Origin: Candidatus Moraniibacteriota bacterium | GTDB lineage: Bacteria > Patescibacteriota > Minisyncoccia > Moranbacterales > UBA1568 | DNA length: 38,937 nucleotides | NCBI GenBank assembly: GCA_049303555.1 | Contig: JBAQNF010000096.1 | Coordinates: 1-38,937, forward strand | Direction: 5' to 3' | Shown: positions 1,956-23,638 of the stretch, in pieces | Layout: the number at the start of each line of letters is the position of its first letter | Numbering within the stretch: the stretch's first letter is position 1 | The notes under the pieces: model-generated | What the model was told of the DNA's origin: nothing | The model's input: only the letters and a program-made list of their open reading frames with translations | Database searches by the model: none | Program-made: the position numbers and the translations under genes

Positions 1956-2732
1956 ATGGAACTCGTACTGAAGGCCATGTTCCAGAGGGTGGTGGCGTAT
2001 ACTCCTGTCATCGCGAAAGCGACCGGATCGGTGAAGCTGACAGTCTTGTGGAATCAAATATATTACTGGTGCGACAAAACGACGGACCCAGAAGGGTGGG
2101 TTTATAAGTCGCAGGAAGACCTGTTCGATGAGACCGGACTGACCCGCAAGGCAGTCGATACGGCGCGAGCATTGGGGAAGAAGCTGGGGATCATGGAGAC
2201 GATGGTCAAGGGTACGCCGCCGACGGTTCACTATCGCGTGGACATTGACCGGATGGTGGAGCTGATTGCGGCGTATTTGAAAAAGCACCCGGAGAAAAAG
2301 CAGAAGGCTTTCAAGATTGTTCCGGAGTCGAAGGAGAGGGCACCGAAGGAATCAGCGATCGAGCTTCCGGCTTGGCTGAACAAAGCGGCGTGGGAGGAAT
2401 TTGAACAACACCGCAAAGAGAAGAAGAAGGCGATGACACCACTGGCGAGGAAGAAGGCTTTTGCTTTCCTGGAAAAGAATCAGGCGGACCATGTGGAGAT
2501 CATCAACATTTCAATACGAAACGGGTGGACAGGTCTTTTTGAGATCAAGAAGCCGAAGCCGAGCGACGCGCAGATCAGGACTAACGCAAAGCAGTCAGTG
2601 GAGGAGCGTGAGCGGATGGCTGTCTTGACCGCGCCAAGAGTACCGAGGACACCGGAGGAGCAGGCACGGATCAACGATACTTTGAACAAGATGAGGGGCG
2701 GTCTAAAAAACAAGATGAAAATGAAACTATGA
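1956..2732 (+). CDS. replication organiser/initiator-like protein (DnaD or phage O-like winged helix)
   Basis: N-terminal winged-helix-like segment (VLWNQIYYWCDKTTDPEGWVYKSQEDLFDETGLTRKAVDTARALGKKLGI). C-terminal LPAWLNKAAWEEFEQHRKEKKKAMTPLARKKAFAFLEK...IRNGWTGLFE, typical of phage replication proteins. Confidence 0.5.
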   Translation: MELVLKAMFQRVVAYTPVIAKATGSVKLTVLWNQIYYWCDKTTDPEGWVYKSQEDLFDETGLTRKAVDTARALGKKLGIMETMVKGTPPTVHYRVDIDRMVELIAAYLKKHPEKKQKAFKIVPESKERAPKESAIELPAWLNKAAWEEFEQHRKEKKKAMTPLARKKAFAFLEKNQADHVEIINISIRNGWTGLFEIKKPKPSDAQIRTNAKQSVEERERMAVLTAPRVPRTPEEQARINDTLNKMRGGLKNKMKMKL

Positions 2733-2965
2733 GCCAGACAGAATTGGAGGTGAAAAAGAATATCGATGTCAGAAAGTTCGAGCCACAATCGAAAGAACTT
2801 TTCTACTTCGTGACTATGGGAACCAGTGGATTCAATGTCAGTGCTCATCTTTTCGGTGACGAGTATAATGACAAAGAGCGCGTGGCTTTTGGAAATAGCT
2901 TTGCAACAAGAGACGAGGTTGATTTTGTCAAAGAGAAGTTGAATCAGCTTTTCAAGAGTCTATGA
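2729..2965 (+). CDS. hypothetical protein (78 aa)
   Basis: ATGA start/stop overlap with the upstream gene. Ordinary globular composition. Confidence 0.45.
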   Translation: MSQTELEVKKNIDVRKFEPQSKELFYFVTMGTSGFNVSAHLFGDEYNDKERVAFGNSFATRDEVDFVKEKLNQLFKSL

Positions 2966-2968
2966 GAT

Positions 2969-3328
2969 ATGTCCACTTTTACCAACGGGAAACATCCCTA
3001 TAATGGGAAGTTCAACAGCTCGGGTCAGAGGAAGCGGTCAAAGCTATACGCAGGATTGAATGTCAGCTTCAAAGAAATTGGGAAAGCGTTCGATCAGATA
3101 GAACGAGAAAGGAATGTAAGCAATAAAAAAACTGTCATGAGCGGGAAACAAGACAAAAAGTTGCGGAAGGAAATGCAGATGAATCACCGGGAACAGGTGA
3201 AGCTGTACCGTGAGAAGGTGGAGGAGATTGCGAAGCGTGATACGAATATGTTCCGGCCGAAGCCGTTCTGGTTTCCGATGTTTCTCTGGGTGTGGATACT
3301 TGGGTTCTTTATTAAGATCAAGCGGTAA
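2969..3328 (+). CDS. basic, tail-anchored membrane protein
   Basis: Lys/Arg-rich with a C-terminal TM segment PFWFPMFLWVWILGFFIKI. TAATG overlap with the glycosyltransferase gene. Confidence 0.45.
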   Translation: MSTFTNGKHPYNGKFNSSGQRKRSKLYAGLNVSFKEIGKAFDQIERERNVSNKKTVMSGKQDKKLRKEMQMNHREQVKLYREKVEEIAKRDTNMFRPKPFWFPMFLWVWILGFFIKIKR

Positions 3329-3963
3329 TGAATAACAAAGTTATCATCATCAGATTCCACTACCCGGTGGACGACAAGCGGTTCGAATGGAGGTTCGGAT
3401 TCTTCAAGACGATCGTCTGGCCGAGGATTCTGGCGCAGACGAATAAGGAATTCGATGTGGCGATTCGCTGCAATCCGGCCCATGAGGAGCTTTTCAAGAG
3501 TCTGCCAGGGGGGAAGACCATCATCACATTCCAGACAAAGAACGATACTCCGAGGTATAAAGTGAATGGTCGGAAGCGGTACTTTCATGATTTCGTTCCG
3601 TGGAGTGACGTCATAGGACTCCCGATGTATGATATCCAGATAGGGCTTGATTCTGATGATTTGATATCTCCTAACTATGTAGCGAAGATTCAAGCAGTCT
3701 GTAAAGGAAACGAGTCATTGCATGTTTTTTTTCAGCCTCAACTCTTTCGTCTGAAGACGCTCAGGATAGAGTCGATGGCGGAATACAGTCGAGAGAGAGG
3801 ATCAGCGTTCAGGGCCCTCTATCAACCAGACAAGAGCGATTACAGATTCATCGATAGCGTGTCGCACATGATTCTTTGGACGTTGGCGAAGAAGAGCGTC
3901 GGATATGTAGATGGTGAATGTTTCGCGGTGGCGCATGATTTGAATGAATCAACAGGGAAATGA
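3328..3963 (+). CDS. GT2-like glycosyltransferase (putative rhamnosyltransferase-type)
   Basis: N-terminal VIIIRFHY...R..FF..IVWPRILAQTNKEFDVAI and a DxD-type motif GLDSDDLISPNYV, as in Glyco_tranf_2_5-like proteins. Confidence 0.55.
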   Translation: MNNKVIIIRFHYPVDDKRFEWRFGFFKTIVWPRILAQTNKEFDVAIRCNPAHEELFKSLPGGKTIITFQTKNDTPRYKVNGRKRYFHDFVPWSDVIGLPMYDIQIGLDSDDLISPNYVAKIQAVCKGNESLHVFFQPQLFRLKTLRIESMAEYSRERGSAFRALYQPDKSDYRFIDSVSHMILWTLAKKSVGYVDGECFAVAHDLNESTGK

Positions 3964-4430
3964 AAAAAGAATACCCGTGGAAAATGAAGTGGACGAAGCG
4001 CACGATGGCAGCGCTTCAATTCGTGACCGAGAATGCTTCAGTAGTGGATCTTGGAGGAGGACTTGGAGAGGTGCATGACCTACGGCCAGACCTTTATTAT
4101 CTGTCTATAGACCGGGAAAAGTGGAATGAGTATACGGTGGTGGCCGACATGGAAAAGGAACTGCCGGATATCGGACACAAGAGGGACTTCGTTCTTTCGC
4201 TCGGGGCGATAGAATACATGGGAGATCCGGAGCGATTTCTGTCAGAGATTGAAAAATACGGGAAGTCGCTTGTCATATCATACCGATACGGACCGATCAA
4301 TATGGGCAGGAAGAATCAGATGACCATTGGCGAGTTTATAAAAATGCTTAAGAGAAGCAACTGGGAGATAATTTCAGAAATAAAAATCAGCACCATCGAG
4401 CGGATCTGGTACTGTAGAAAAACACTATGA
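3960..4430 (+). CDS. class I SAM-dependent methyltransferase
   Basis: Motif I VVDLGGGLGE, followed by LSIDRE and DFVLSLGAIEYMGDPERFL (post-I and motif II/III-like). ATGA overlaps on both sides. Confidence 0.6.
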   Translation: MKKEYPWKMKWTKRTMAALQFVTENASVVDLGGGLGEVHDLRPDLYYLSIDREKWNEYTVVADMEKELPDIGHKRDFVLSLGAIEYMGDPERFLSEIEKYGKSLVISYRYGPINMGRKNQMTIGEFIKMLKRSNWEIISEIKISTIERIWYCRKTL

Positions 4431-5143
4431 GAGCCTACTGGCACCAAAGCAGAAACTTCGGGGATACGCTGACTCCCCCGATCATCCACGCGATTCTTGG
4501 TGAGGATGTGGAATTCGCTCTGAGAAATTCAGGAGGGAAATTGATAGCGATCGGCAGCATAATCGTAGCCTTACGAAGAGGAGATGTGGTATGGGGTACC
4601 GGGTCAATCAGGGCCGGACAGCCAGGGTGTATCAAACAACCGCCGCGTTCGAAGTTTCTCGCAGTCCGGGGGCCACTCACGCGCGAGCTTATCGATGGGG
4701 ATGTTCCGGAAGTATACGGGGACCCGGGGATATTGCTCCCGATTGTGTACCGGCCGACAGTAGCGATCACGCACAAGGTCGGGTATATGCCGCATCATGT
4801 AGACCGGGAGATTTTCAAGAAGCAGCATCCGATCAAGGAAGGAGAGTTGTTTATTGATATCATGCAAGACTGGCGCGAGGTAGTGAAACAGATCCTTTCA
4901 TGCGAAGAGATCGTCACATCTTCGCTTCACGGGATAGTCTGCTCTGAGGCGTATGGGCTGCCGGTTACCTGGGTGAAGTATTCGGACGGCATTATCGGAG
5001 GAGAGTTTAAGTTTCAAGACTACTTTCTCGGGACAGGGAGGCGGCGACATTCGTACGGGGAACGAATCGAACCGATACAAAACCTCTGCCAGAGGCAAGA
5101 AGCACTCATTATGGCACTAAAAAAACACTATGGAAAAAATTGA
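4427..5143 (+). CDS. polysaccharide pyruvyl transferase (CsaB/WcaK/GumL-like)
   Basis: N-terminal NFGDTLTPPIIHAILG and C-terminal IVTSSLHGIVCSEAYGLPVTWV...KFQDYF match the hallmark PS_pyruv_trans motifs. Confidence 0.65.
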   Translation: MRAYWHQSRNFGDTLTPPIIHAILGEDVEFALRNSGGKLIAIGSIIVALRRGDVVWGTGSIRAGQPGCIKQPPRSKFLAVRGPLTRELIDGDVPEVYGDPGILLPIVYRPTVAITHKVGYMPHHVDREIFKKQHPIKEGELFIDIMQDWREVVKQILSCEEIVTSSLHGIVCSEAYGLPVTWVKYSDGIIGGEFKFQDYFLGTGRRRHSYGERIEPIQNLCQRQEALIMALKKHYGKN

Positions 5144-6017
5144 TTTGGTCTATATTCTCGGCACGGGGAGCCGTTGGAGAAACAACGAAATCCGGTACTC
5201 ACTCCGGAGCGTAGAGAGGAACTTTCCAGTCGGGAAAGTTTTCATCATTGGAGAATGCCCGGACTGGATAACGGGCGCGATTCATATACCGGCCCCTGAT
5301 ATTCACAAAAATAAGCAGGCAAACGCAAGAGAGAAGTATCTGATCGCGGCTAAGGATAAGCGAATCGGAGAGAACTTCGCGCTGATGAATGATGATTTTT
5401 TCATACTAAAATCGGTTAAGAAGGTGGAGAATTATTCTCGAGGTACCATCCAGGAGATGATCGACCGGCATCCGACCAAGAGCGGTTACTATTACCAGTC
5501 GCTCAAAGATACGAAGAGAGTCCTGGAAAGCATGGGAATTGTTGATCCGGAGGATTTCGAGATCCACGCGCCGATCATGTTCAATAAAGAAAAACTGCTG
5601 ACGACCATTCAGCTTGTCGGAGCTGAAAAGGATTATTCTTTCCGGAGTTGCTATGGCAATCTGAATGCTCTCAAAGGAAAAAAGACGATTGATTTCAAGG
5701 CGAACGGGCTGGTAGAATTTGCCTATCAAGTGAAAAGAGATCCGACATATCTATCGATTAGTGATGCGCTGGTAGCAGAGAGAGAATTTCGCGATTGGTT
5801 GCGGAGAAAATTTCGAAACCCGAGCAGGTACGAAACTGATAGGGGAGAAGGCGCAGACATCTTGCCTGGAGGAGAAATGAAATCGCTTCGGTACTATGCT
5901 GTAGATACATTCACTTATGCTGGGAAGACATATTCACAGGGAGAAATTATCCAGCATGAGATCATGGATGAACTCAGAAATCAGCGGCAGATGAAAGACC
6001 TTTGGGTCCTGAAATAG
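5130..6017 (+). CDS. Stealth-family sugar-1-phosphate (hexose-1-phosphoryl) transferase
   Basis: CR1-like IDLVYILG. CR2 NNEIRYSLRSVERNFP..KVFIIGECPDWI. CR3 FALMNDDFFILK. CR4 EIHAPIMFNKEKL. Confidence 0.65.
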   Translation: MEKIDLVYILGTGSRWRNNEIRYSLRSVERNFPVGKVFIIGECPDWITGAIHIPAPDIHKNKQANAREKYLIAAKDKRIGENFALMNDDFFILKSVKKVENYSRGTIQEMIDRHPTKSGYYYQSLKDTKRVLESMGIVDPEDFEIHAPIMFNKEKLLTTIQLVGAEKDYSFRSCYGNLNALKGKKTIDFKANGLVEFAYQVKRDPTYLSISDALVAEREFRDWLRRKFRNPSRYETDRGEGADILPGGEMKSLRYYAVDTFTYAGKTYSQGEIIQHEIMDELRNQRQMKDLWVLK

Positions 6018-6019
6018 CA

Positions 6020-6048
6020 TTGACAAAGGCTTAAATACGCGATATAAT
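6020..6048 (+). promoter_or_regulatory. perfect-consensus sigma70 promoter TTGACA-N17-TATAAT
   Basis: TTGACA 6020-6025, exact 17-nt spacer, TATAAT 6043-6048. Lies in the only sizeable gap after the glycan cassette, 68 nt upstream of ATG 6116. Confidence 0.7.
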
Positions 6049-6115
6049 GGGTATTAAGAAGGTCGGGTGAGGCCTTCCCAGGGTGATTTAATCAACCAGG
6101 GAAAATATCACAATT

Positions 6116-6637
6116 ATGAAGCGAAAAACACCAAAGCGTGGGGAGCAGGGGAAATGGAGGATTGGGTTGAAGACAAGGGTAAAAATAGTGTTCGGGGTTA
6201 TACTGGCGATTGGATTCGGTGCCAGTTCGGTCGTGAATTATTATGAAGGCGGGAAGCTGGTCAAGGAGGTGTTTGGAGGGACGAGCATGGTTTCTCAGGC
6301 ACAAGCCAAGAGCTTTGAGAAAGAGGTTGACCTGGCACCGGCGAAGGACTGCAATGAGGCAATAGATCGTACTGATGGCCCGGCTGATCTGATGAAGAGA
6401 ATCGTGAAGTCGGAAAGTACCAATAATCCGAAGGTGAAGAATCCAGTGAGTTCGGCGAGTGGGTGTTTTCAGTGGATAAGCTCTTCATGGAATCAGTACG
6501 GGAAAGAATTTTGGGGAGAGGACTTCTTTGGAAAGAATATCTACAACCCACAGGACAACACCGATCTGGCGGCCTATGTGATAGGGAAGTACGGTACAAA
6601 TGATTGGAATGCGAGTCGTGACAAATGGTCTAAGTAG
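6116..6637 (+). CDS. membrane-anchored SLT-like lytic transglycosylase
   Basis: N-terminal TM segment (IVFGVILAIGFGASSVV). Catalytic-type E-S motif IVKSESTNNP followed by SASGCFQWISSSW and NPQDNTDLAAYV, resembling ES...GLMQ...AYNxG of family-1 transglycosylases. Confidence 0.5.
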   Translation: MKRKTPKRGEQGKWRIGLKTRVKIVFGVILAIGFGASSVVNYYEGGKLVKEVFGGTSMVSQAQAKSFEKEVDLAPAKDCNEAIDRTDGPADLMKRIVKSESTNNPKVKNPVSSASGCFQWISSSWNQYGKEFWGEDFFGKNIYNPQDNTDLAAYVIGKYGTNDWNASRDKWSK

Positions 6638-6646
6638 GGGTATACT

Positions 6647-6676
6647 AAGAAGTAGGAATAGCCTACTTCTTTTTTA
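6647..6676 (+). terminator. rho-independent terminator
   Basis: Perfect 10-bp stem AAGAAGTAGG / CCTACTTCTT (6647-6656 / 6662-6671), 5-nt loop, then a T-run. Confidence 0.75.
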
Positions 6677-7266: not shown

Positions 7267-8159
7267 AAAAACTTCGGTATTTTTCGACATTCACAGGAAT
7301 CGGGGGCCTCGACTGGGGACTGGAAGAGATGGGCGCCAAGTGCGTCGGGTTCTCGGAAGTGAAGGAGAGCTCGATCCGCATATACCAGGGACACTTCCCG
7401 GACCACAAGAATTTCGGGGACATCACCAAGATCAACCCGAAGGAGCTCCCGGATTTTGATGTCTTCACTGGGGGGTTCCCATGCCAAGCGTTCTCTATCG
7501 CGGGAGACCGGAAGGGATTCAAAGACCGGCGCGGTCAGATGATATTTTTCATATACGATATTCTCAAGGAGAAAAAGCCGGAGTACCTGGTGCTTGAGAA
7601 TGTGAAGGGGATATTCAGTCATGACGGGGGGCGGACGGTGCAGAATGTATTCAAGCTTCTGTCCGCAGCCGGGTACCACATGAGAATCGTTTTGCTCAAT
7701 GCTTCCCATTACGGGTCGGCCCAGGCGAGGGAGCGAGTGGTCTTCATTGGGCGGAGGAGCAAGGACTTTCCAGAGAAGCACCCGGAGATCCGGGACAATA
7801 CTAAACGATTCAGAGATTTCCGGGAGAAGCGGAAGGATTACAAGTATGTGACGCCAGGGAGAGCTGAGAAATTATTGTCAGGTGAGAACAAAGCAATGTT
7901 TATCGGGGGGTACGATAAGGTGAATACCCTGACAACAGGTATTTCTACATCAGGGCGGGCTCTCGTAGTGACCCAGGAGAAAGATGATCCAAGGCTTCGG
8001 TACCTGACAGAGCTCGAAGGTGAGCGATTGCAGGGATTCCCGGATGACTGGACCAAGGACGGGTCGCGGGTCGAAAGATGGTTCGCGATCGGGAACGCGG
8101 TGAATTGCCGGATGAGCAGCTATTTATTCAATGATTACCTGAAGGGGATCTGGTGGTGA
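7263..8159 (+). CDS. dcm: DNA (cytosine-5)-methyltransferase
   Basis: Motif I FSTFTGIGGLDWG, motif IV GGFPCQAFSIAG, motif VI LVLENVKG, motif VIII QARERVVFIG, motif X IGNAVNC. Confidence 0.9.
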   Translation: MKKLRYFSTFTGIGGLDWGLEEMGAKCVGFSEVKESSIRIYQGHFPDHKNFGDITKINPKELPDFDVFTGGFPCQAFSIAGDRKGFKDRRGQMIFFIYDILKEKKPEYLVLENVKGIFSHDGGRTVQNVFKLLSAAGYHMRIVLLNASHYGSAQARERVVFIGRRSKDFPEKHPEIRDNTKRFRDFREKRKDYKYVTPGRAEKLLSGENKAMFIGGYDKVNTLTTGISTSGRALVVTQEKDDPRLRYLTELEGERLQGFPDDWTKDGSRVERWFAIGNAVNCRMSSYLFNDYLKGIWW

Positions 8160-8161
8160 GT

Positions 8162-8722
8162 ATGGAAACAGTAAAAAGGCCGGAGTGTTTTGGCCAGTTC
8201 AGTGAGAAATCGGACTTCTGCAATAAGGTCTGCAAACACGCTGATGATTGCATAAAGAAAAAAAATCATGACAGTCACAAAGGAACAACTGATAGCAGCG
8301 GGGGAGGGCGGGGCATGTCTCCAAAGGATTCAAGTCAAGGTGTGGGAGTACATGAATCTACCGACAGAGCTTCGGAACGGAGTGACCCTGGCAGAGGCGA
8401 TCTATCAGGACGTAAAAAAAACAGAGGAGAGGATCAGGGAAATGAACAGAGGGAATGGTTGGAAGCCGGTCCCACCCTCGAGGGTGCCGGGAACACCGAT
8501 GTGCTAAGGAAAAAAAATATGATATGTCCAAATGGCCACGGAATGACCTGGGTGGAGGGAGCAGGAAGAGGGGAAGGGTATTGGGACTGCTTTGCATGTA
8601 AGAGGGAAAGAAGTATCGCAGTAGAGAGTCCATCAAACAAGATGATCGACTCTCGTGATATAGTGACTAAGGACTATGGAAAACAAAGAGGAGGAGAAAA
8701 CAGCAGAGGAGAAGGAGCTTGA
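8162..8722 (+). CDS. Cys-rich ORF of uncertain structure (may be two small zinc-ribbon-like genes rather than one)
   Basis: The N-terminus ECFGQFSEKSDFCNKVCKHADDC and C-terminus MICPNGHG...YWDCFACK look protein-like. The middle is G/R/S/D low-complexity and is fully overlapped by the better-looking ORF 8268-8507. An internal ATG at 8519 could start a separate 67-aa gene. Confidence 0.3.
   Translation: METVKRPECFGQFSEKSDFCNKVCKHADDCIKKKNHDSHKGTTDSSGGGRGMSPKDSSQGVGVHESTDRASERSDPGRGDLSGRKKNRGEDQGNEQREWLEAGPTLEGAGNTDVLRKKNMICPNGHGMTWVEGAGRGEGYWDCFACKRERSIAVESPSNKMIDSRDIVTKDYGKQRGGENSRGEGA
8268..8507 (+). CDS. hypothetical protein (79 aa), nested in another frame of 8162-8722
   Basis: MTVTKEQLIAAGEGGACLQRIQVKVWEYMNLPTELRNGVTLAEAIYQDVKKTEERIREMN has helical hydrophobic periodicity. 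Its ATG is preceded by an A8 run, like other starts in this genome. Confidence 0.45.
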   Translation: MTVTKEQLIAAGEGGACLQRIQVKVWEYMNLPTELRNGVTLAEAIYQDVKKTEERIREMNRGNGWKPVPPSRVPGTPMC

Positions 8723-9389
8723 CACTAAGGAGGTGTCGGGTTCTGATGTTATTGAAAAGAGGGAAAAGGTGACGAAAAGTGACACGAGCGCAGACGGCGT
8801 GATAAAAAAGAAAGAAGAGCAGGAGAGGACGAGAATCAAAAAGAAACTATTCCTTGAGGTGTTTGGGAAAACCCTTGGAGCAGTATCAGCGACATGTGAG
8901 AAGGTGGGGATAGAGAGGAATACTTTTTATAACTGGAAAAAGGATGACCCGGCATTTCTTTTTGAGCTGAAAGAAAGAGAGAGGAACATGCTTGAGGATG
9001 TCGAGCAGGTACTAAAGAAATTGATTCTGAAAGAGGAGGGCGCCTCTGTGAGATATTTTCTGGACAGGCGTCATCCACTCTACAGGCCGAGGGTGAAGGT
9101 TGATGGACCGGTAGCCGGTGATAAGTCGCTCGAGGAAGAGCTTGACGAGATGGAATTCGATGATGATTCGAAGTATGGAGAAAACAAAGAAAAAAATGAC
9201 GGAGTTGGAATTGATAGAGACCAGAATCAGGCTCCGGAACAAGCGGGGTCAAATAGTGCCGTTCAAATTGAACCCGGCGCAGGCGTACTATTGGCGAAAG
9301 AAGACGCGACGAAACGTGATAGTGAAGGCCCGGCAGAAGGGGATCAGCAAAATCATTCTGGCGCGGTATCTGGTCCGGTGCATTCGTAA
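8676..9389 (+). CDS. terS: terminase small subunit (HTH type)
   Basis: KKKLFLEVFGKTLGAVSATCEKVGIERNTFYNWKKDDPAFLFELKERERNMLEDVEQVLKK...VRYFLDRRHPLY is the classical small-terminase HTH pattern. Lies directly upstream of TerL. The C-terminal tail overlaps TerL. Confidence 0.7.
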   Translation: MENKEEEKTAEEKELDTKEVSGSDVIEKREKVTKSDTSADGVIKKKEEQERTRIKKKLFLEVFGKTLGAVSATCEKVGIERNTFYNWKKDDPAFLFELKERERNMLEDVEQVLKKLILKEEGASVRYFLDRRHPLYRPRVKVDGPVAGDKSLEEELDEMEFDDDSKYGENKEKNDGVGIDRDQNQAPEQAGSNSAVQIEPGAGVLLAKEDATKRDSEGPAEGDQQNHSGAVSGPVHS

Positions 9390-10680
9390 GAATATCAACG
9401 CGGTAGTTATCTCCCATGAGAAGGGAGCAACACAACGGCTCTTCGCTTCGGTGAAAATGTACATTGACCTTTTGGTGGTGAAGCCGACGACAAGCATTGA
9501 TTCGAAGAGCGAGATCCGTTTCCCATTCCGGGGGAGCTCGTACTTTATCGGGACGGCCGGACAGAAGGCGTTCGGGCGTGGCGATACGGTGGCACTGGCG
9601 CACTTGTCGGAGGCAGCTTTCTATCCAGAGCTGGTCCGGATTCTGAACGGTATCGCGGAGGCGGCCGAGTATGGAGAGATTGACATCGAGACATCACCGA
9701 ACGGACGGGAAGCAGTGTATGATCTCTACCAGAAAGCGAAGGCGGGGATGAGTTCTTTCACGGCCATCTTCATTCCTTGGTTCATAGACCAGGAATATAG
9801 CGCCGACAATTTGACAGAGGAGGAATTGAACGGGCTTTCGAAAGGGGTGCAGGAGATGTTTTCAATGCCGGATGATGAGTTCATGAAGACACTCGATGAT
9901 GGGGAAAAGAAACTGCTCGAGATGGTGGAGCGCGACTGGGCGAAAGAAGGGTGTGTGATGACGCCCGGAATGCTCAAGTGGAGGCGGGCAAAGATTTGGG
10001 ACAAGGGAGAAATCTTTTTTCAGGAGTACCCGGAGGATGATGTGTCATGCTTCTTGCAGAGTGGCCGGTCTGTATTCAGTGAGATCACGTTGGATATTTC
10101 CAAGCGTATACCATTGGACAACTTTGAATCATGGGCAAAGACGAAGGGGATGAGTGACAAGCAGCAGGAGATTTTCAAAAACAAAATGATGTTCGGGGGG
10201 ATAGACCCGGCAGTCGGGACGGCGAACGGTGACGGCGCGGTGTTCTCGGTCATCGATGTGGATATGGAGACAGGCAAGGCGGCAGTGGTGTTTGAATACC
10301 GCTCGAATGAACCATCAGATATTTTTTGCCAGAAGGTCGCATATGTGACGGAGATTTTCAACATCTGGCTGGGTGTAGAAAACAACGGTGTTGGACAGGG
10401 AACCATCAAGGAGTTGCGTCACCTGGGAGTGAGATTCTTCGAGTGGGAAACGACAGGCGCGAATCGCACCCCGATGATCATGGAATTGGAGAAGGCATAT
10501 CGGACAGGTCTTCTCGTCGAAACTTACCCAGAGGCAGAAAATGAAGCGAGGGATATGGTTTATACCGGAGAACCAGAACGACCAGACCACAAAGAAGGCA
10601 AACATGATGACCGAGTATTTTCCAGAGCTATTGCGTGGGGAATGCGAAACAAGCCGTTGCCGGGTGTGACCTACTTGTAA
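9196..10680 (+). CDS. terL: terminase large subunit
   Basis: N-terminal ATPase segment FKLNPAQAYYWRKKTRRNVIVKARQKGISK. C-terminal RNaseH-like nuclease motifs GGIDPAVGTANGDGAVFSVID and HDDRVFSRAIAW. The start is ambiguous (ATG 9160, 9175 or 9196; 9196 has the A-rich context). Confidence 0.85.
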   Translation: MTELELIETRIRLRNKRGQIVPFKLNPAQAYYWRKKTRRNVIVKARQKGISKIILARYLVRCIRKNINAVVISHEKGATQRLFASVKMYIDLLVVKPTTSIDSKSEIRFPFRGSSYFIGTAGQKAFGRGDTVALAHLSEAAFYPELVRILNGIAEAAEYGEIDIETSPNGREAVYDLYQKAKAGMSSFTAIFIPWFIDQEYSADNLTEEELNGLSKGVQEMFSMPDDEFMKTLDDGEKKLLEMVERDWAKEGCVMTPGMLKWRRAKIWDKGEIFFQEYPEDDVSCFLQSGRSVFSEITLDISKRIPLDNFESWAKTKGMSDKQQEIFKNKMMFGGIDPAVGTANGDGAVFSVIDVDMETGKAAVVFEYRSNEPSDIFCQKVAYVTEIFNIWLGVENNGVGQGTIKELRHLGVRFFEWETTGANRTPMIMELEKAYRTGLLVETYPEAENEARDMVYTGEPERPDHKEGKHDDRVFSRAIAWGMRNKPLPGVTYL

Positions 10681-13749: not shown

Positions 13750-15072
13750 ATGAATCTCAAAGAATTGCTGAAGAAGCTTCTTGAGAATGCTGCCGGCCTC
13801 AGTGTTGAGGAGAAAGCGTTCTTGGCTTCAAACGAAGATTCCATGAGCGACGTTGAAAAGGAAGCCTTTGCAAAAGTCGCCGTGGAAGAGGAAGAGGGAA
13901 TCGACAAGGAAGCTCTTAAGGCCCTTGTTGGGAAGTCGATTGAAGACGCTCTCGCTGGACGCGTGGACAAAATCTCTGACCAGATCGTGGCCAAGTTCCA
14001 GAAGGGTGTAAATGCTGCCCGGGCCAAGGTGCTCGATGGTGTCGAGGAAGAGGAAGAGAAGAAAGATGAGAAGGCAAAGGGTTTTGCGACCCGTGAGTTC
14101 TTGAAGGCCCTTATGAACGGCGACAAGGCTCGCGCTAAGGCTGTCACTACGGACGACGCAGGTGCCGCTCCGGATGATACCAAGGCAGGTCTCTTGATTC
14201 CTGACGAACTTCGCACTGAAGTTTTGCGGATCAAGGAAACTCAGTATGGTCTCGCTCGTCGCGAAATGTTTTATCTCCCGTTCTCTGGTCCTGGCAATAG
14301 CCGAACCATTCCAGCTCTCGGAACTTCTGTTACCGTAAAATGGACAGATGAGAAGGGCAAGAAGAAATCCACTCAGCCTAAGTTCTCAGTGATCACTCAG
14401 ACGCTGAAGAAACTCGCTGCTATCGTACCTTTCACCGAGGAAATCCTCGAGGACAGTGCAATCGATATCGTGAAGTTGGTTGGTGAATTGTTTGCAGAAG
14501 CAACCGCAAAAGAAGAAGACCTCCAGTTCTTTGCTGGTACTGGATCCCCATGGACTGGTATCTTGAACAATGGATCGGTCAACATCGTGACCATGCTGAC
14601 GGGTGAAGCAAATGACAATCTCGCAGACGAACTCCTTCGTATGCAGGATGCTACCCCATCAGGTGCGCAGGATGGTGCAAAATATTTCATGCACCGTTCA
14701 TGGCTCAATCGGATTCGCAAAATGAAGTCGAGCACTGGTGATTACGTCTACACCAAGCCTTCTGATGGTCAGCCGGCTATGATCTGGGACAAGCCAGTAG
14801 TTCTCTCAGATGCCTTTCCATCGACTGCCGATGTGCAGGTAGGAGATCCTTTCGTACTCTACGGAAATCTCAAGCAGGCCGCAGTGTTTGGCGACAAGCA
14901 ACAGCTTCGTGTGAAGCTCCTTGATCAGGCCACCATCACTGATACCGATGACTCAACGATCATCAATCTTGCTGAGCAGGATATGGTCGCTCTCCGAGTT
15001 GTCGAGCGTGTTGGGTACACTGTAGCTCTCGCAGCCGCAGCGACGGTTCTGAAGTACGCCGAAGAATCCTAA
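13750..15072 (+). CDS. major capsid protein, HK97 fold, with an N-terminal delta/scaffold-like coiled-coil
   Basis: Acidic coiled-coil N-terminus, then LIPDELRTEVLRIKETQYGLARR...LKKLAAIVPFTEEILEDSAIDIV...EEDLQFFAGTG, typical of Phage_capsid. Follows the protease. Confidence 0.85.
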   Translation: MNLKELLKKLLENAAGLSVEEKAFLASNEDSMSDVEKEAFAKVAVEEEEGIDKEALKALVGKSIEDALAGRVDKISDQIVAKFQKGVNAARAKVLDGVEEEEEKKDEKAKGFATREFLKALMNGDKARAKAVTTDDAGAAPDDTKAGLLIPDELRTEVLRIKETQYGLARREMFYLPFSGPGNSRTIPALGTSVTVKWTDEKGKKKSTQPKFSVITQTLKKLAAIVPFTEEILEDSAIDIVKLVGELFAEATAKEEDLQFFAGTGSPWTGILNNGSVNIVTMLTGEANDNLADELLRMQDATPSGAQDGAKYFMHRSWLNRIRKMKSSTGDYVYTKPSDGQPAMIWDKPVVLSDAFPSTADVQVGDPFVLYGNLKQAAVFGDKQQLRVKLLDQATITDTDDSTIINLAEQDMVALRVVERVGYTVALAAAATVLKYAEES

Positions 15073-15183: not shown

Positions 15184-15696
15184 ATGGCATCAACAGTTGA
15201 AATTGACGAGGCTAATGGCGCGGGTGAGACTCTTACTCACAACATTACAAACTCGAACATGGGCAGTGCTGATGAGGTCAACACTGATCCAGTGGCTAAC
15301 CCGATTGCACCAGCTACGCATACCTACATCAAGTATCAAAAGGTTCATGTGACGGCGATGGGCGGGTCTTCGAAAATCGACAATCTGAAAGTCTGGCGAA
15401 CAGGAGCATTGGGAACTGGGGGCACGCATGCGCATGTCACCAACGCCAGAGAGTCTTCCTACGCGGGAGCCTTGGCCTATGCTACTCCTGTACGTACCAC
15501 GCCGGTTGCGACAGTGACGCAGGCTATGCCTACATCGGTGCCTACTGGGGCGAACCTTGGAATCGGTGGATCTCTTACTGGAAGCCTCACTGCAACAGGG
15601 TCGTCTGACTACCTCGGACATCAGATCACGACCGACGCTTCGGCCACTGCAGGAAGCACGAGCACGATGAACTATCAATACGATGAAACCGCTTAA
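15184..15696 (+). CDS. Ser/Thr/Gly/Ala-rich protein (possible head decoration protein)
   Basis: ATG 15184 inside tracked ORF 15088-15696. 170 aa with S/T/A/G-rich tracts (TTPVATVTQAMPTSVPTGANLGIGGSLTGSLTATGSS). Located immediately after the MCP gene. Confidence 0.45.
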   Translation: MASTVEIDEANGAGETLTHNITNSNMGSADEVNTDPVANPIAPATHTYIKYQKVHVTAMGGSSKIDNLKVWRTGALGTGGTHAHVTNARESSYAGALAYATPVRTTPVATVTQAMPTSVPTGANLGIGGSLTGSLTATGSSDYLGHQITTDASATAGSTSTMNYQYDETA

Positions 15697-16409: not shown

Positions 16410-18602
16410 ATGATTAGGAACTACGAATTGATCGATAAATATATCGACATTATTGACCCGGAAACAATCAACCGGCTTTTGTGGTTCCAATCTAAAATTG
16501 GGTATTATGTTGGACACCTTCCGATTGTGCGACCGGCCATCATTTGGCTCGAAGATTTTTTTACAAAGAGAGGACGAAGGAGTTCGAAGTTTGCTCGTAT
16601 GCTTCACTGGGCAACGGGCAATTCTATATTTTATTTGGACTACGTAGGGGGATCAGACGCGGCTTCTGGAGCAGACTGGGCGAATGCGTGGAAGACGCTA
16701 ACACTCGGGGCTACGGCGGCACGTATAGCGCCGGGTGATGTGATCCGTATTGCAAAGAGTCCGGCTCCGACTTCACTCGGGATGACAGCAGCATGGACCG
16801 ATCTTTCAAGGACAGTCACACTCAATTCTGCTTTGACCGCTGTTATAGAAGACTGCGAAGATGCCTGGGTAGCCTCTGCAAACGTTACTTGTACAACTTC
16901 TGCGACTAATAAAGAAGGGACGAATTCAGCTTCGATTGCTATCGCTGCAGGATTTACTACTGGAAAAGTAGCCTATGAAGCCCTGGCTGGATCGACTGAT
17001 TTTTCAGGGTACCAGCAGGTTTCTTTTTGGATCCGAACTTCAGTAGCAATAGCGGCAGGAGTATTGACACTCGATTTGTGTTCAGATACTATCGGAGCTA
17101 CCTCAGTCAATTCAATCGCTATCCCAGCCATACCTGGAACATCAGTGTGGCAAGTGGTTACGGTAGACACAGGCGCAGCTTTGGGGTCAGCGATTCAATC
17201 TATTTCTATCAATGCTGTATCTGACCCAGGAGCTCCAACGATTCTTATTGACAATATTATTGCTTGCAAGGATTCTTCTGCGGCAGATAGTCTGACGCTC
17301 TCCTCTCTTATTTCAAAAAATTCTGCTGAGCAAGGCGGAGCTGAGGCGTGGCATACAATTCAGAGCATCAGTGGGACCACTGTCATATTAGACGCACATA
17401 CGGGAACGGAAGCTGGTACGGGGAGAGGATATTCAGGAACGACTGAAACGGTAACGACGTATAAAAGAGAAACTATCAAAACTACTCCAACCACAAACTC
17501 CACCGATATAGTTGGAAGTGTTACTGATTCTGGAACTCTTGGAAGCAATATAGAGTACCAAGGCGGGTACGATACGGGAACATCTCTCCAGACTGGTGAA
17601 ACGTTTTTTGATGGACAAAATTCAAATGGGCATGGTATTTCTTTGGTATCAAAGAGCTTTATAACGTTGAACTATCTCAACTTCCATAGATATAGTACTG
17701 GTATAAACTTGAGTGGTTCTCACAATAATACGATACAACACATAAGCAATATTGTTGGCTGTGGTTTCATGGGCATATCTCTCTCATCAAGTTGCAATAA
17801 CTATATAGGAAAAATCTTAAATTGTATCAACTGCGGAACCAACAGTGGAATGCGAATGATTTCCAGGAGTAGCAACAATTATATAGAAGAAATTTCGAAT
17901 ATTAGCGGTAACGGTACCGGATTGAGCTTCTCTGGAAGCGATTTGAATACCATTGTATTGATAGGAAAAGCAAATAACAATGCATCGTATGGCGTTAGCT
18001 TCTTTGATTCAAGTTTGAATAAAATTGGAAGCATTGTAACGGCATCAAATGGTACTGCTGGTATAGATACTAATGCCATCAATTATATTGAAACAGCTGA
18101 TATATCAGAGTCAACAAAAGTAACTGCTCGGGGTGACTTCCAAAACTGTTTAGTTTTTATAAATAAATTCAATGGCACTGGACACCCAAAAATATTCGCT
18201 GATGGAGGGAATATTGTTAGACAGACTTCGACACTTACAAATGGGTCAGGTTTTCAGTGGTTGTTTACAACAGAAACAAACACGAATAGGCAATCTAATT
18301 ATCCGCTTAGACTAACAATCGCTAAGATAGCTGTTACCGCCAACAATCTCGTTACAGTGAAGGCATGGTTTCTTAAAGGTCATGCCACGAATATAGGTGC
18401 GAAATTAGTATGTAGGGGAGGACAGATTGCTGGGGTAGCAACAGATGTTACGGCGACGAAAGCCAATGATACAGCCGAGGAAGAATTGACTATCACGTTC
18501 ACGCCGACCGAAGATGGTGTCGTGGAAATTGAAGCGTGGGCGTATTATGTTGCTGGTCATTCGACTGTCATTGTAGACGCCATGACAATAACGCAGGCAT
18601 AA
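16410..18602 (+). CDS. right-handed beta-helix (pectate-lyase fold) tailspike/depolymerase-like protein
   Basis: FYLDYVGGSDAASGADWANAWKTLTLGATAARIAPGDVIRIAKS is typical of a beta-helix N-cap. There are PbH1-like repeats (NNTIQHISNIVGCGFMGISLSSSCNNYIGKILNCINCGTNSGMRMISRSSNNYIEEISNISGNGTGLSFSGSDLNTI). Confidence 0.6.
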   Translation: MIRNYELIDKYIDIIDPETINRLLWFQSKIGYYVGHLPIVRPAIIWLEDFFTKRGRRSSKFARMLHWATGNSIFYLDYVGGSDAASGADWANAWKTLTLGATAARIAPGDVIRIAKSPAPTSLGMTAAWTDLSRTVTLNSALTAVIEDCEDAWVASANVTCTTSATNKEGTNSASIAIAAGFTTGKVAYEALAGSTDFSGYQQVSFWIRTSVAIAAGVLTLDLCSDTIGATSVNSIAIPAIPGTSVWQVVTVDTGAALGSAIQSISINAVSDPGAPTILIDNIIACKDSSAADSLTLSSLISKNSAEQGGAEAWHTIQSISGTTVILDAHTGTEAGTGRGYSGTTETVTTYKRETIKTTPTTNSTDIVGSVTDSGTLGSNIEYQGGYDTGTSLQTGETFFDGQNSNGHGISLVSKSFITLNYLNFHRYSTGINLSGSHNNTIQHISNIVGCGFMGISLSSSCNNYIGKILNCINCGTNSGMRMISRSSNNYIEEISNISGNGTGLSFSGSDLNTIVLIGKANNNASYGVSFFDSSLNKIGSIVTASNGTAGIDTNAINYIETADISESTKVTARGDFQNCLVFINKFNGTGHPKIFADGGNIVRQTSTLTNGSGFQWLFTTETNTNRQSNYPLRLTIAKIAVTANNLVTVKAWFLKGHATNIGAKLVCRGGQIAGVATDVTATKANDTAEEELTITFTPTEDGVVEIEAWAYYVAGHSTVIVDAMTITQA

Positions 18603-18612
18603 AATATTATGT

Positions 18613-22435: not shown

Positions 22436-23638
22436 ATGCACTACATTTCAGACCTGGCCTATATGGCCTTTGGAAAGCAGTCCTCGGCGGTCGCGGCTGT
22501 AATCCCAGACGTATTCGTGCCTCTGATGGAAGAGGACATGAAAGTGGATCCGAAGAATGAGCGGGTCAAGCAGATTGTCGGTATCAACTGGTCGTCTAAC
22601 AAAATGCTGCAGGGCTTGCGAGAAGTCGGCGGCAGTTTCACTATCCAGTGTGATCCTGAGAACATCGGACATATTCTCAATATGGTGTTGGTAAAAGACA
22701 CCACGAGCGGAAGTGCACCAGTCGGATATACTCATCCATTCCTTGAGGATGGTGAGCCAGAATTTTATACGATCGATATTGTAAAAGGAAATGCTGTCCA
22801 GCGTTTCGTCGGTTGTCAGATCACGAAGGTCGAGTTCTCCTTTCAAGATAGCCACCTTATCGCAAAATGTGATGTCATCGCACGTCACGCGTTCTCAGTG
22901 GGAACATTGAAGACGGCTCTGACTGGCGCTGGCATGGTAGCCGTTGTCTTTGACGAAGGATATGATCCGGAGCCTGTTCTTGGACTGGTGGCCGGAGATA
23001 TTATTCAGGTGCAGGCTGATGACGGGTCATTCACGGATGTCACTATCGCTACGATTGTCGCAGGGAACAAGAGTGTGACCATGAGTGCGACTGCTGTGAC
23101 GGCTTCGATCGGAGCGCTGATCTCTCTTAAGGCACAGACCCCAAGCTATGCAGCATTGAAGCGTCCATTCAAGTTCGGGCAATGTCTCGTTGGATTCGGT
23201 GCCGATCAGACAGCGGCAGACGCGAATGTCGCCTCCTATGCCTTGGCTACTCCAGTCGATGACTTCAAGCTAACCATCAATCGGAACATTACCCGAAGAC
23301 GGGCGACTGGAAAGAATGACGCGCTGACCCTTATTGGGACAGGAGACGCAGAATTGACAGTCAAGAAGCTCTTCGAAGACGCTGAGCAACAGCAGCAATG
23401 GATGGACATTGCTAAAAAGGCATGTTCGATTCTCTTCACTGGAGACAACATTGCGACCACCTACTACTGCACACTCGCAATCAAGCTCCACAATATCAAG
23501 CCAAGCGATCATGGAAACAAGCTTTCCAAGGGTGAGTACGTCTTCGATGAGACGACCTTTATGGTCGAGTACGATGACACTGATGGTATGGCGATGGAAG
23601 TCACGCTCCTTAATGCGACAGCGGGAACTGAGTACTAA
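22436..23638 (+). CDS. major tail protein (tube), large variant
   Basis: Called from synteny: it immediately precedes the frameshifting chaperone pair and the tape measure gene. 400 aa. Confidence 0.5.
   Translation: MHYISDLAYMAFGKQSSAVAAVIPDVFVPLMEEDMKVDPKNERVKQIVGINWSSNKMLQGLREVGGSFTIQCDPENIGHILNMVLVKDTTSGSAPVGYTHPFLEDGEPEFYTIDIVKGNAVQRFVGCQITKVEFSFQDSHLIAKCDVIARHAFSVGTLKTALTGAGMVAVVFDEGYDPEPVLGLVAGDIIQVQADDGSFTDVTIATIVAGNKSVTMSATAVTASIGALISLKAQTPSYAALKRPFKFGQCLVGFGADQTAADANVASYALATPVDDFKLTINRNITRRRATGKNDALTLIGTGDAELTVKKLFEDAEQQQQWMDIAKKACSILFTGDNIATTYYCTLAIKLHNIKPSDHGNKLSKGEYVFDETTFMVEYDDTDGMAMEVTLLNATAGTEY

Follow-up and report, generated by a model that had tools for sequence, protein, structure and literature searches.

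Layout of the locus

Four consecutive genes (g1 to g4) encoding putative glycan-modifying enzymes are located near one end of the window, i.e. the whole stretch of 38,937 nucleotides analysed here. The window represents an approximately 39 kb siphovirus genome of groundwater origin, apparently lytic, with all genes on a single strand; a search of its ORFs revealed neither an integrase nor a repressor nor a divergent module. Its relatives form a large family of virulent siphoviruses with genomes of about 35–41 kb, known from metagenomes and in some cases binned with Patescibacteria, the probable host group of the window phage. The genes and features at the locus are the following:

2969–3328, plus strand: left border gene, small protein with a C-terminal membrane segment
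3328–3963, plus strand: g1, 211 aa, soluble glycosyltransferase-like protein (Rhamno_transf, PF11316)
3960–4430, plus strand: g2, 156 aa, class-I SAM methyltransferase-like protein
4427–5143, plus strand: g3, 238 aa, short-form polysaccharide pyruvyl transferase (PS_pyruv_trans, PF04230)
5130–6017, plus strand: g4, 295 aa, compact Stealth-type, hexose-1-phosphate transferase-like protein
6020–6671, plus strand: right border unit, self-contained, outside the cassette
6020–6048, plus strand: sigma-70-type promoter, perfect (12/12 match)
6116–6637, plus strand: gene for a membrane-anchored transglycosylase with SLT domain
6647–6671, plus strand: terminator-like hairpin of the right border unit

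The four ORFs at 3328–6017 are translationally coupled as initially annotated, the upstream gene and g1 being joined by TAATG, g1 and g2 as well as g2 and g3 by ATGA, and g3 and g4 by an overlap of 14 nt. The cassette is chained in this way to the replication-initiator operon (1956–3328), not to the late genes. Both neighbouring proteins had been described as membrane-bound, in line with hydropathy: the upstream one (119 aa) has a C-terminal hydrophobic segment (3263–3319), the downstream SLT-domain protein an N-terminal one (6179–6235). Homologues of the left border gene precede the slot in phages with every cassette type and in those with an empty slot, and the gene is thus not part of the cassette. 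Apart from the window, only its closest relatives, L164 and L165, have the right border unit.

Family assignment of the four gene products

Every motif quoted in the initial annotation was recovered by motif search. Together with one further motif of g4 (KFRNPSRYE), they are located as follows:

3643–3660, plus strand: GLDSDD, g1
4041–4070, plus strand: VVDLGGGLGE, motif I of g2
4454–4471, plus strand: NFGDTL, g3
4919–4963, plus strand: SSLHGIVCSEAYGLP, g3
5009–5026, plus strand: KFQDYF, g3
5139–5162, plus strand: IDLVYILG, g4
5187–5213, plus strand: EIRYSLRSV, g4
5385–5402, plus strand: MNDDFF, g4
5559–5573, plus strand: EIHAP, g4
5808–5834, plus strand: KFRNPSRYE, g4
5886–5951, plus strand: LRYYAVDTFTYAGKTYSQGEII, portable module of about 30 residues at the C-terminus of g4

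The motifs are invariant among dozens to thousands of homologues per gene (alignments A1, A2, A4 and A5), and the same gene set recurs in the same order across many independent contigs, so that the pattern is not due to chance. Failure of two or more of the four family calls was not observed; all four survive, with corrections.

The gene product of g1 had been called GT2-like (Glyco_tranf_2_5), a link that gained no support. It scores 33.5 bits with Rhamno_transf PF11316 (Pfam cut-off 23 bits), a family which we take to be a member of the Pfam GT-A clan and which is carried by almost all of 65 g1 homologues, whereas no GT2-type Pfam model matched at E ≤ 1 and profile comparison (hhalign) with the GT2 enzymes of sister phages gave a probability of 0.9%. 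D108, D110 and D111 are invariant in the 16 sequences of alignment A4. No PDB sequence match was obtained for g1, the homologues of which are found almost exclusively on phage-sized contigs.

The methyltransferase call for g2 is supported through its homologues, seven out of eight family members matching Methyltransf_23 or Methyltransf_11 (best E 1.1e-10, Methyltransf_23), while g2 itself remains below the cut-off (Methyltransf_11, E 0.0022, 19 bits against 21.2 bits). Its PDB matches are weak and mostly to methyltransferases. Of the four genes, g2 is the most mobile and the easiest to dispense with, being missing or placed elsewhere in the gene order in several relatives.

The assignment of g3 to the pyruvyl transferase family was confirmed: the protein scores 44.8 bits with PS_pyruv_trans (threshold 25.3 bits), covering model positions 65–279 of 280, and contains the motifs N-F-G-D, R-G-P, S-S-L-H-G and K-x-Q-D-Y. 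Homologues are numerous (n = 3484), and all 120 of those listed carry PF04230. A significant PDB sequence match was not found. The AlphaFold model (pLDDT 95) matches predicted models of giant-virus proteins (TM 0.8, E 1e-20), superposing on those of Mimivirus, Pithovirus and Klosneuvirus at 20–29% sequence identity; these are annotated as polysaccharide pyruvyl transferases or glycosyltransferases. The solved structure of Pvg1p (5ax7) ranks only 12th (TM 0.47, E 0.05), with generic GT-B-like folds scoring alike.

For g4, the Stealth assignment stands by profile comparison with the PDB and by predicted fold, but not by the Pfam models: Stealth_CR2 matches below its cut-off (E 1.4e-6, 28.9 bits against 39.4 bits), and the CR1, CR3 and CR4 models gave no match at E ≤ 1. 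The closest phage family, phrog_7999 (E 1.8e-47), is of unknown function. Profile A2 of g4 detected the catalytic domain of GlcNAc-1-phosphotransferase (E 7.7e-13), the Drosophila enzyme (E 1.2e-7) and CpsY (E 4.1e-5) in the PDB. With the structure model (pLDDT 92.9), the top 13 Foldseek hits are all CpsY, the top match, or GlcNAc-1-phosphotransferase (E 1.7e-10 to 4e-8, TM about 0.5–0.6), and GT6 and GT8 enzymes rank behind them. The motif-level Stealth equivalents DLVYILG, EIRYSLRS, MNDD, H-x-P and FxxPSxYE are invariant. EIHAP, initially read as CR4, belongs by alignment to the third Stealth region, where it corresponds to His-x-Pro; it is KFRNPSRYE that matches the FPLPSQFE ending the catalytic domain of GlcNAc-1-phosphotransferase. 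By sequence profile and modelled fold, g4 is thus clearly predicted to be a Stealth-type enzyme, consisting of a minimal catalytic core of about 235 residues (approximately residues 1–236) and a tail of about 60 residues. Its family comprises 5888 cluster representatives in 1.84 billion proteins, i.e. thousands of mostly phage-borne proteins.

The portable module lies within this tail. Its profile also matches the C-termini of 300-aa GT2 proteins (L180, L193, L195, L184 and others) and the N-terminus of a 573-aa GT2 protein in L179, so that the module is common to three unrelated enzymes of the island alleles. Its carriers are different enzymes in phages with structural proteins in common. The best PDB matches of the module are two chitin-binding domains, neither significant (E 0.4–0.6).

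A hypervariable glyco-island

The small membrane-protein gene on one side and the ParB/terminase genes on the other flank an accessory glyco-island that is hypervariable, the four-gene cassette being one of its alleles. Different alleles encode GT32, methyltransferases and Stealth, or GT2 with LicD and a TagD-like cytidylyltransferase (with or without a sulfotransferase), or GT2 with UDP-glucose dehydrogenase; in some TerL relatives the slot is empty. One cassette variant sits on a 215-kb contig.

The genes are functionally coupled: of the 27 closest viral loci, 21 contain g4 alongside g3 and 14 contain g1 alongside g3. Phage g3 homologues adjoin g1, g4, TagF-like, GT2 or GT4 genes. In other phages g1 and g3 are paired with a TagF-like enzyme. 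Fusion proteins link the same activities: g1 with g3 (P0299), g3 with a methyltransferase (P0045) and GT32 with Stealth (P0226). The g1-g3-g4 set is kept in phages with strongly diverged portal and terminase proteins.

Proposed pathway and its acceptor

The family memberships are demonstrated here; the order of the steps, the sugars and the linkages we infer. Judged by the enzyme families, the pathway very probably decorates a glycan with phosphodiester-linked, pyruvylated and methylated chemistry. The gene products would act as soluble cytoplasmic enzymes, using host nucleotide sugars, PEP and SAM to build a short anionic glycan on a pre-existing acceptor. In this scheme g1, as a GT-A-type transferase, would add a sugar, g4 would attach hexose-1-phosphate via a phosphodiester bond with release of UMP, g3 would cap a sugar with a pyruvate ketal derived from PEP, and g2 would O-methylate. 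The module on g4 may serve as a docking piece bringing the enzyme to its acceptor. Hydropathy revealed no membrane segments in g1 to g4, and no priming transferase, flippase or ligase was found among the window ORFs; because the enzymes are soluble and functions for priming, flipping and ligating are missing there, they would have to decorate an existing acceptor.

As this acceptor, virion surface proteins of the phage itself (head or fibre) are slightly favoured over precursors of host wall polymers, and the proposal as a whole, with virion glycosylation as its outcome, is put forward tentatively. In favour of the virion are the single-strand gene arrangement, the lack of integrase and repressor and of priming transferase, flippase and ligase among the window ORFs, and the occurrence of the portable module on different enzymes in phages with common structural proteins; the glycosylated mycobacteriophage capsids described below are a precedent. 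Weak evidence for a virion acceptor comes from the Stealth gene being located in or against the head module in other lineages: in L301 it separates the major capsid gene from the connector gene, in L014 it overlaps the start of the portal gene, and in L370, L209 and Fionnbharth the terminase genes follow it directly. Gene position carries little weight here because unrelated accessory genes are commonly inserted in structural operons. By analogy, the giant-virus enzymes found as best structural matches of g3 may also count for it; Mimivirus fibril glycans contain pyruvylated GlcNAc and methylated sugars and are made by viral enzymes. Of 11 phages with a Stealth or LicD cassette, 8 encode a fibre protein with 16-residue repeats, as against 0 of 5 phages without such a cassette; these counts ignore phylogeny. 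The two substrates initially suggested gain little support, as the association of the repeat protein (18613–20367) with the cassette is weak and phylogenetically confounded, and the S/T-rich protein encoded after the capsid gene (15184–15696) is found in relatives with or without any cassette. The latter observation, like the chaining to the replication-initiator operon, speaks against a virion acceptor. No S/T-rich C-termini are present on the capsid (13750–15072) or tail-tube (22436–23638) proteins. Stealth, TagF-like, LicD and pyruvyl transferases canonically act on wall and capsule glycans, either polymeric or lipid-linked, rather than on proteins.

The alternative that the host envelope is remodelled is only slightly less probable. 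Here the targets of g1 to g4 would be undecaprenyl-linked precursors of a host wall glycopolymer (teichoic-acid or secondary-cell-wall-polymer type), modified on the cytoplasmic side of the membrane, and the infected cell would export an altered, more anionic polymer, which would mask the receptor from superinfecting phages or keep the progeny from adhering to debris. All enzyme families of the island (Stealth, TagF-like Glyphos_transf, LicD, TagD-like cytidylyltransferase, UDP-glucose dehydrogenase and pyruvyl transferase) are classic families of wall or capsule polymers and, taken together, cover the three kinds of anionic polymer found in Gram-positive walls. In cells, g3 homologues belong to polysaccharide clusters that also contain flippase, chain-length and acyltransferase genes, and the closest cellular homologues are in Patescibacteria; the chaining to early replication genes and the resemblance of the module to carbohydrate-binding domains, although non-significant, point in the same direction. 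Also in line with this reading, the prophage enzyme TarP glycosylates wall teichoic acid of S. aureus, and CsaB acts on lipid-linked precursors. However, the window is devoid of a lysogeny module, which excludes long-term conversion and makes the serotype conversion of classical form considered in the initial annotation unlikely, and during infection by a virulent phage a new polymer has little time to appear on the cell surface. The phage modifiers of host glycans known to us are single-step enzymes of temperate phages, and the Stealth genes in or against head modules also count against an envelope target.

Modification of DNA, in which a modified base would be decorated with sugar, sugar-phosphate and pyruvate as protection from restriction, is highly improbable. 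Genes for ParB-like and DNA methyltransferase proteins lie directly beside the island, and in large phages g1 or g3 homologues adjoin genes of nucleotide metabolism (dNMP kinase and nucleosidase in Cobetia phage Carin-5, SHMT in L166, thymidylate-synthase-like protein, dCMP deaminase and kinase in L300). DNA of SP-15, with a hydroxylated base bearing sugar and sugar-phosphate, is a precedent for the chemistry. Yet no thymidylate-synthase-like hydroxymethylase, TET/JBP dioxygenase, dNMP kinase or DpdA-type enzyme is found among the window ORFs of at least 100 aa, and the protein following Dcm is Cys-rich and of low complexity. Furthermore, the partners of g3 are ordinary GT2 and GT4 enzymes, and the alternative alleles (LicD, TagD-like protein, sulfotransferase, UDP-glucose dehydrogenase) encode typical polysaccharide enzymes. 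Least probable of all is that the phage captured the cassette recently from a polysaccharide cluster of its host and that none of its functions is under selection there. Cellular homologues of g3 reach about 45–52% identity, and the island is dispensable, since the slot is empty in some relatives; on the other hand, the genes are intact, tightly coupled and similar in composition to the remaining genome, the g1-g3-g4 set persists across phages with diverged portal and terminase proteins, the g4 family is mostly phage-borne, and g1 is almost confined to phage-sized contigs.

Comparison with known systems

The catalytic fold predicted for g4 is that of the Neisseria capsule polymerases, CpsY of M. 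tuberculosis and GNPTAB, with which it has the motifs ELRYSLRS, NDD, H-x-P and FPxPSxFE-type in common. Unlike these classical enzymes, g4 consists of a minimal core and a tail and is below the Pfam thresholds for all four models. Similarly, g3 passes the family threshold as do CsaB, WcaK, EpsO and Pvg1p, has their conserved Arg-, His- and Lys-containing motifs and is likewise associated with glycosyltransferases and polysaccharide clusters, but it is shorter (about 230–240 versus 300–400 aa).

In the TarP, Gtr and Oac systems a phage enzyme alters a surface glycopolymer used as phage receptor, TarP being a soluble cytoplasmic GT-A enzyme. These are single-step systems of temperate phages, whereas the window encodes a putative four-enzyme pathway, no lysogeny module and no Gtr-type membrane proteins. 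As in T-even and TET-encoding phages, accessory glycosyltransferases adjoin DNA methyltransferase genes; unlike those phages, the window is without hydroxymethylase, TET and dNMP kinase, and the enzyme families are different ones. Giant viruses (Mimivirus and relatives) resemble the window phage in combining a virus-encoded pyruvyl transferase with glycosyltransferases and methylation, but infect eukaryotic hosts, possess multi-domain enzymes of 400–730 aa and synthesize their own nucleotide sugars. To our knowledge, no Stealth partner occurs in their glycan machinery.

Mycobacteriophage capsids are glycosylated by phage-encoded glycosyltransferases (PMC12363180), and virion glycosylation in Che8, Corndog and Myrna is attributed there to Freeman et al. 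2023. According to that article, the glycosyltransferases modify virion proteins in temperate and lytic phages and, as in the window phage, form an accessory cassette outside the structural operon that varies between related phages. The hosts there are actinobacteria, neither Stealth nor pyruvyl transferase is reported, and the capsid and tail-tube subunits serve as acceptors through S/T-rich tails at their C-termini, which the window phage lacks. The initial annotation considered the combination of four activities undescribed. This may well be so for the exact set, which is, however, a single allele of a broader glyco-island that recurs among phages, and there are earlier examples of viruses that encode cassettes for methylated and pyruvylated glycans. 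If the proposal is true, the phage would carry a negatively charged sugar decoration on its virion.

Genome organization and probable host

The window is a siphovirus-type genome of approximately 39 kb with all genes on the forward strand. Its main features are:

1956-2732, +, replication-initiator O-like protein
3328-6017, +, cassette of four genes (g1-g4)
6020-6671, +, SLT unit (promoter, gene and terminator)
3' of the cassette, +, SLT transglycosylase, ParB-like protein and C5 DNA methyltransferase
head genes, +, small and large terminase subunits, portal, protease and major capsid protein
tail and lysis genes, +, tail tube, tape measure, Dit, Tal-like protein, collar/fibre protein and GH25 endolysin
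35471, +, exonuclease-like protein
36106, +, RecT-type annealing protein

The terminase large-subunit ORF as listed (9118-10680) has a GTG start inside the small-subunit gene, and alignment with relatives suggests that the true start lies near 9250. A search of the window ORFs revealed no integrase, no repressor and no divergent lysogeny module, and the genome looks virulent. No tRNAs were detected in the window.

A megablast search with 25 kb of the window gave no DNA-level match among about 50,000 isolated phages, and the portal protein is a distant pointer to phages of Firmicutes. The nearest contigs, which share the gene order of the window, are from groundwater (Hainich, 0.1 µm fraction; including L164, ERZ1292629). 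A 38-kb contig carrying the cassette (L084, GCA_049287245.1, 38171 bp) was binned in a Minisyncoccia MAG, and other phage-sized cassette contigs were binned as Saccharibacteria, Falkowbacteria, Paceibacterota and other Patescibacteria. The nearest cellular homologues of g3 are also patescibacterial, one of them a chromosomal gene of the cultured Ca. Microsyncoccus archaeolyticus; Patescibacteria are therefore the likely host group. Whole phage genomes and fragments of the same phage family (L084, L088, L092 and L096) have been deposited as part of Patescibacteria (CPR) MAGs.

Architecture and boundaries of the cassette

The four ORFs of the cassette (g1, 3328-3963; g2, 3960-4430; g3, 4427-5143; g4, 5130-6017) and their junctions (TAATG, ATGA, ATGA and an overlap of 14 nt) are present as described in the initial annotation, as are all motifs quoted there. 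The coupled chain starts further 5', with the replication initiator, a 78-aa protein and a 119-aa membrane protein preceding g1 (gaps of -4, +3 and -1 nt). Hydrophobic segments were not found in g1-g4; the flanking 119-aa and SLT proteins contain one each. The base composition of the cassette is no different from that of the remainder of the genome.

Both flanking genes were rejected as members of the cassette. The 119-aa membrane protein is retained even where the downstream slot is empty. The SLT gene has its own sigma-70-type promoter (12 of 12 consensus positions; TTGACA, 17 nt, TATAAT), which begins 3 nt past the g4 stop codon, is followed by a 10-bp hairpin with a T-run, and is restricted to the window and its nearest relatives, a moron-like pattern.

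Enzyme families of the cassette

None of the four family assignments proposed initially failed, two of them requiring more than a Pfam scan; NCBIfam gave no informative match for any of the four proteins. The Stealth-type protein g4 matched Pfam Stealth_CR2 below threshold only. It matches phrog_7999, a phage family of unknown function, over its full length (E 1.8e-47), and a profile built from 28 homologues matched the catalytic domain of GlcNAc-1-phosphotransferase (E 7.7e-13) and CpsY of M. tuberculosis (4e-5) among solved structures. The 13 best fold matches of the g4 model (pLDDT 92.9) are CpsY and GlcNAc-1-phosphotransferases, ranking above GT6 and GT8 enzymes. Clustering at 50% leaves 5888 representatives of this very large family, most of them with 225-250 residues. 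It includes "hypotheticals" of cultured actinobacteriophages, namely gp6 of Mycobacterium phage Fionnbharth (L246:1273-1959), gp115 of Gordonia phage OneUp and gp215 of Microbacterium phage Cece, which occur singly, with no further glycan genes. Cluster K phages have the gene three positions upstream of the terminase.

The predicted pyruvyl transferase g3 exceeds the PS_pyruv_trans threshold and has 3484 homologues. Its model (pLDDT 95) matched solved structures weakly (GT-B-like folds; Pvg1p with a TM of 0.47) and superposes on proteins from giant viruses that carry a polysaccharide pyruvyl transferase annotation (TM 0.8). Against PDB sequences, neither g1 nor g3 gave a useful match, whether searched as a single sequence or as a profile. 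For g1, described initially as a GT2-like transferase, the Rhamno_transf (PF11316) threshold is exceeded and the DSDD motif is invariant; the "GT2-like" label was dropped, as hhalign against GT2 enzymes of sister phages revealed no relation and a link to GT2 is not demonstrable. No isolated phage was matched in a tblastn search with g1. The g2 protein is marginal alone; judged by sequence, its family clearly belongs to the class-I methyltransferases.

A variable island with alternative alleles

Related phages were gathered by the terminase (50-67% identity) and by the capsid protein; for the terminase, a single-sequence scan was empty and an alignment-based search succeeded. Among these relatives, the slot that follows the small membrane protein and precedes the ParB/terminase genes is variable.

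Alleles observed in the slot
g1-g2-g3-g4, in varying order
GT32-like enzyme, double methyltransferase and g4
g4 alone
GT2, LicD, TagD-like cytidylyltransferase and GT2, sometimes with a methyltransferase or sulfotransferase
large GT2 and UDP-glucose-dehydrogenase-like protein
empty

In larger, unrelated phages a TagF-like glycerophosphotransferase is joined to g1 and g3, and in more distant and jumbo phages g3 adjoins ordinary GT2 or GT4 genes. The predicted common theme is a glycosyltransferase combined with a phosphodiester-forming or acid-adding enzyme and small decorations, and every island allele is predicted to add negative charge. The cassette genes co-occur recurrently, and fusion proteins (g1-g3, g3-methyltransferase and GT32-Stealth) provide a putative functional link between the components; in one contig, the g1-g3 arrangement appears split, which may be a frameshift. 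In one group of freshwater phages (L016-L082, about 44 loci), short-form Stealth-like genes are flanked by a conserved opposite-strand cluster of GT47-like, Glyco_trans_1_2, FkbM methyltransferase and GT4 genes, sometimes with an NAD-dependent epimerase/dehydratase. This is a different phage glycan cluster around the same Stealth-like enzyme.

A portable module of approximately 30 residues was found in several alleles. The last ~45 residues of the long-form g4 contain the motif K-Y-Y-A-x4-F-x-Y-x-G-x2-Y-N-x-G-D-I-I (5886-5951 in the window). The same motif is located at the C-terminus of a 300-aa GT2 closing LicD-type cassettes (related loci L180:6561-7469, L193:5299-6207 and L195:6176-7078) and at the N-terminus of a 573-aa GT2 in a third allele (L179:3904-5625, residues 5-35). 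Because it is found on three unrelated catalytic domains and at either terminus, the module is best read as a putative docking or targeting piece, and a recombination scar was rejected. In the PDB, it most resembles two chitin-binding domains, at E-values (0.4-0.6) that are not significant.

Proposed pathway and acceptor

In the proposed pathway, g1 would place a sugar on a pre-existing acceptor, g4 would add a hexose-1-phosphate, g3 would form a pyruvate ketal and g2 would methylate the product. The only inputs needed would be UDP or dTDP sugars of the host, PEP and SAM. A priming phosphoglycosyl transferase, a flippase, a polymerase and a ligase are absent from the window.

The acceptor may be the virion, a reading put forward tentatively and at less than even confidence. 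It is consistent with the virulent-looking genome and with the position of Stealth genes in other phages: in a 104.7-kb contig (JGI 3300040801), a long-form Stealth-like gene (L301:10001-10882) separates the major capsid gene from the connector genes of the head module, in another contig (L014) the Stealth gene overlaps the portal start, and in some other lineages it is found immediately 5' of the terminase genes. Virus-encoded multi-enzyme glycan cassettes of giant viruses produce virion glycans, and to our knowledge this applies to all such viral cassettes resolved by experiment. Furthermore, among phages with a Stealth or LicD cassette, 8 of 11 encode the fibre protein with 16-residue repeats (18613-20367), as against none of the five phages that lack one, a raw count that ignores relatedness; the initial annotation had nominated this protein as a substrate. 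For mycobacteriophages, virion glycans are reported as the product of virus-encoded multi-enzyme cassettes (cited in PMC12363180). A wall polymer of the host is also a possible acceptor, if a somewhat more doubtful one. Lipid-linked wall or capsule polymers are the normal substrates of all the enzyme families involved, polysaccharide clusters contain the cellular homologues of g3, the cassette in the window continues a coupled chain of early genes, and the capsid and tube proteins have no S/T-rich tails. Modification of DNA is very improbable: g1 and g3 are found beside nucleotide-metabolism genes in some large phages, but the window encodes no enzyme able to make a hydroxylated base. Neither a TET-type enzyme nor a hydroxymethylase was found beside Dcm, where a Cys-rich, low-complexity protein of 189 aa is encoded (8153-8722, 3' of the DNA methyltransferase), for which no homologue was found.

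In the large phages concerned, pyruvyl-transferase/g1 genes adjoin a dNMP kinase and a nucleosidase (L002, Cobetia phage Carin-5), SHMT (contigs L166 and L167) or thymidylate-synthase-like, dCMP deaminase and kinase genes (contig L300). These neighbours could be a coincidence within early regions, or could hint at DNA-linked chemistry in the large phages.

The S/T-rich protein (15184-15696), also nominated initially as a substrate, was rejected as a correlated one; its presence and S/T content are equal with and without the cassette. Two large proteins are encoded after the head genes and before the head-tail adaptor (16410-20367). The first, a 730-aa beta-helix-like protein, is found in the window alone and in no relative, and was rejected as a general partner of the cassette; the second (584 aa) contains about 26-33 copies of the 16-residue repeat (TKSLKYTVE.TPSAI). 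Relatives encode very different large proteins at this position (repeat fibres, glycine-rich, beta-helix or lectin-like); therefore, it is a second hypervariable site, probably encoding a head or neck fibre. Near the Stealth-like gene of L301 are genes for a repeat-rich 359-aa protein and for a protein of 1019 aa that matches BclA_C faintly. Searches of phages by tblastn with the repeat protein and a 363-aa protein of L300 were uninformative.

A more far-reaching combined scenario, unlikely in all its parts at once, is that the swappable island of phages probably infecting Patescibacteria writes alternative anionic, teichoic-acid-like glycans on their own head or fibre proteins. The options would be sugar-phosphate with pyruvate, glycerol- or alditol-phosphate (TagD with LicD or TagF-like enzymes), uronic acid and sulfate; the docking module would steer whichever enzyme is present to one acceptor, and thousands of phage Stealth-like proteins (phrog_7999) would be phosphoglycosyl transferases. 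If so, wall-polymer chemistry would have been repurposed for decoration of proteins or virions.

Comparison with known systems and significance

Five known systems come nearest: mycobacteriophage virion glycosylation, the glycan machinery of giant viruses, Stealth capsule enzymes, CsaB/WcaK-type pyruvyl transferases and prophage TarP. In contrast to all five, a Stealth enzyme and a pyruvyl transferase occur together here in a small, virulent-looking phage; the cassette is also an allele of a hypervariable island fixed in position, and it carries a portable module that other alleles share. No description of phage Stealth enzymes was found in a literature search of limited extent, and the claim of novelty is limited accordingly.

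A large phage family labelled as unknown (phrog_7999) gains a testable function, sugar-1-phosphate transfer, and pyruvyl transferases emerge as recurrent phage genes, always with glycosyltransferase partners. With either acceptor, the enzymes are compact glyco-engineering candidates for phosphodiester-linked, pyruvylated glycans. The island is fixed in position and hypervariable, and its alleles would all add negative charge through differing chemistries, a pattern that points to a surface glycan under diversifying selection. If the virion is the acceptor, elaborate virion glycosylation would reach well past actinobacteriophages and giant viruses; with a host-wall acceptor, the wall polymers of ultra-small bacteria would be remodelled by virulent phages in the course of infection.
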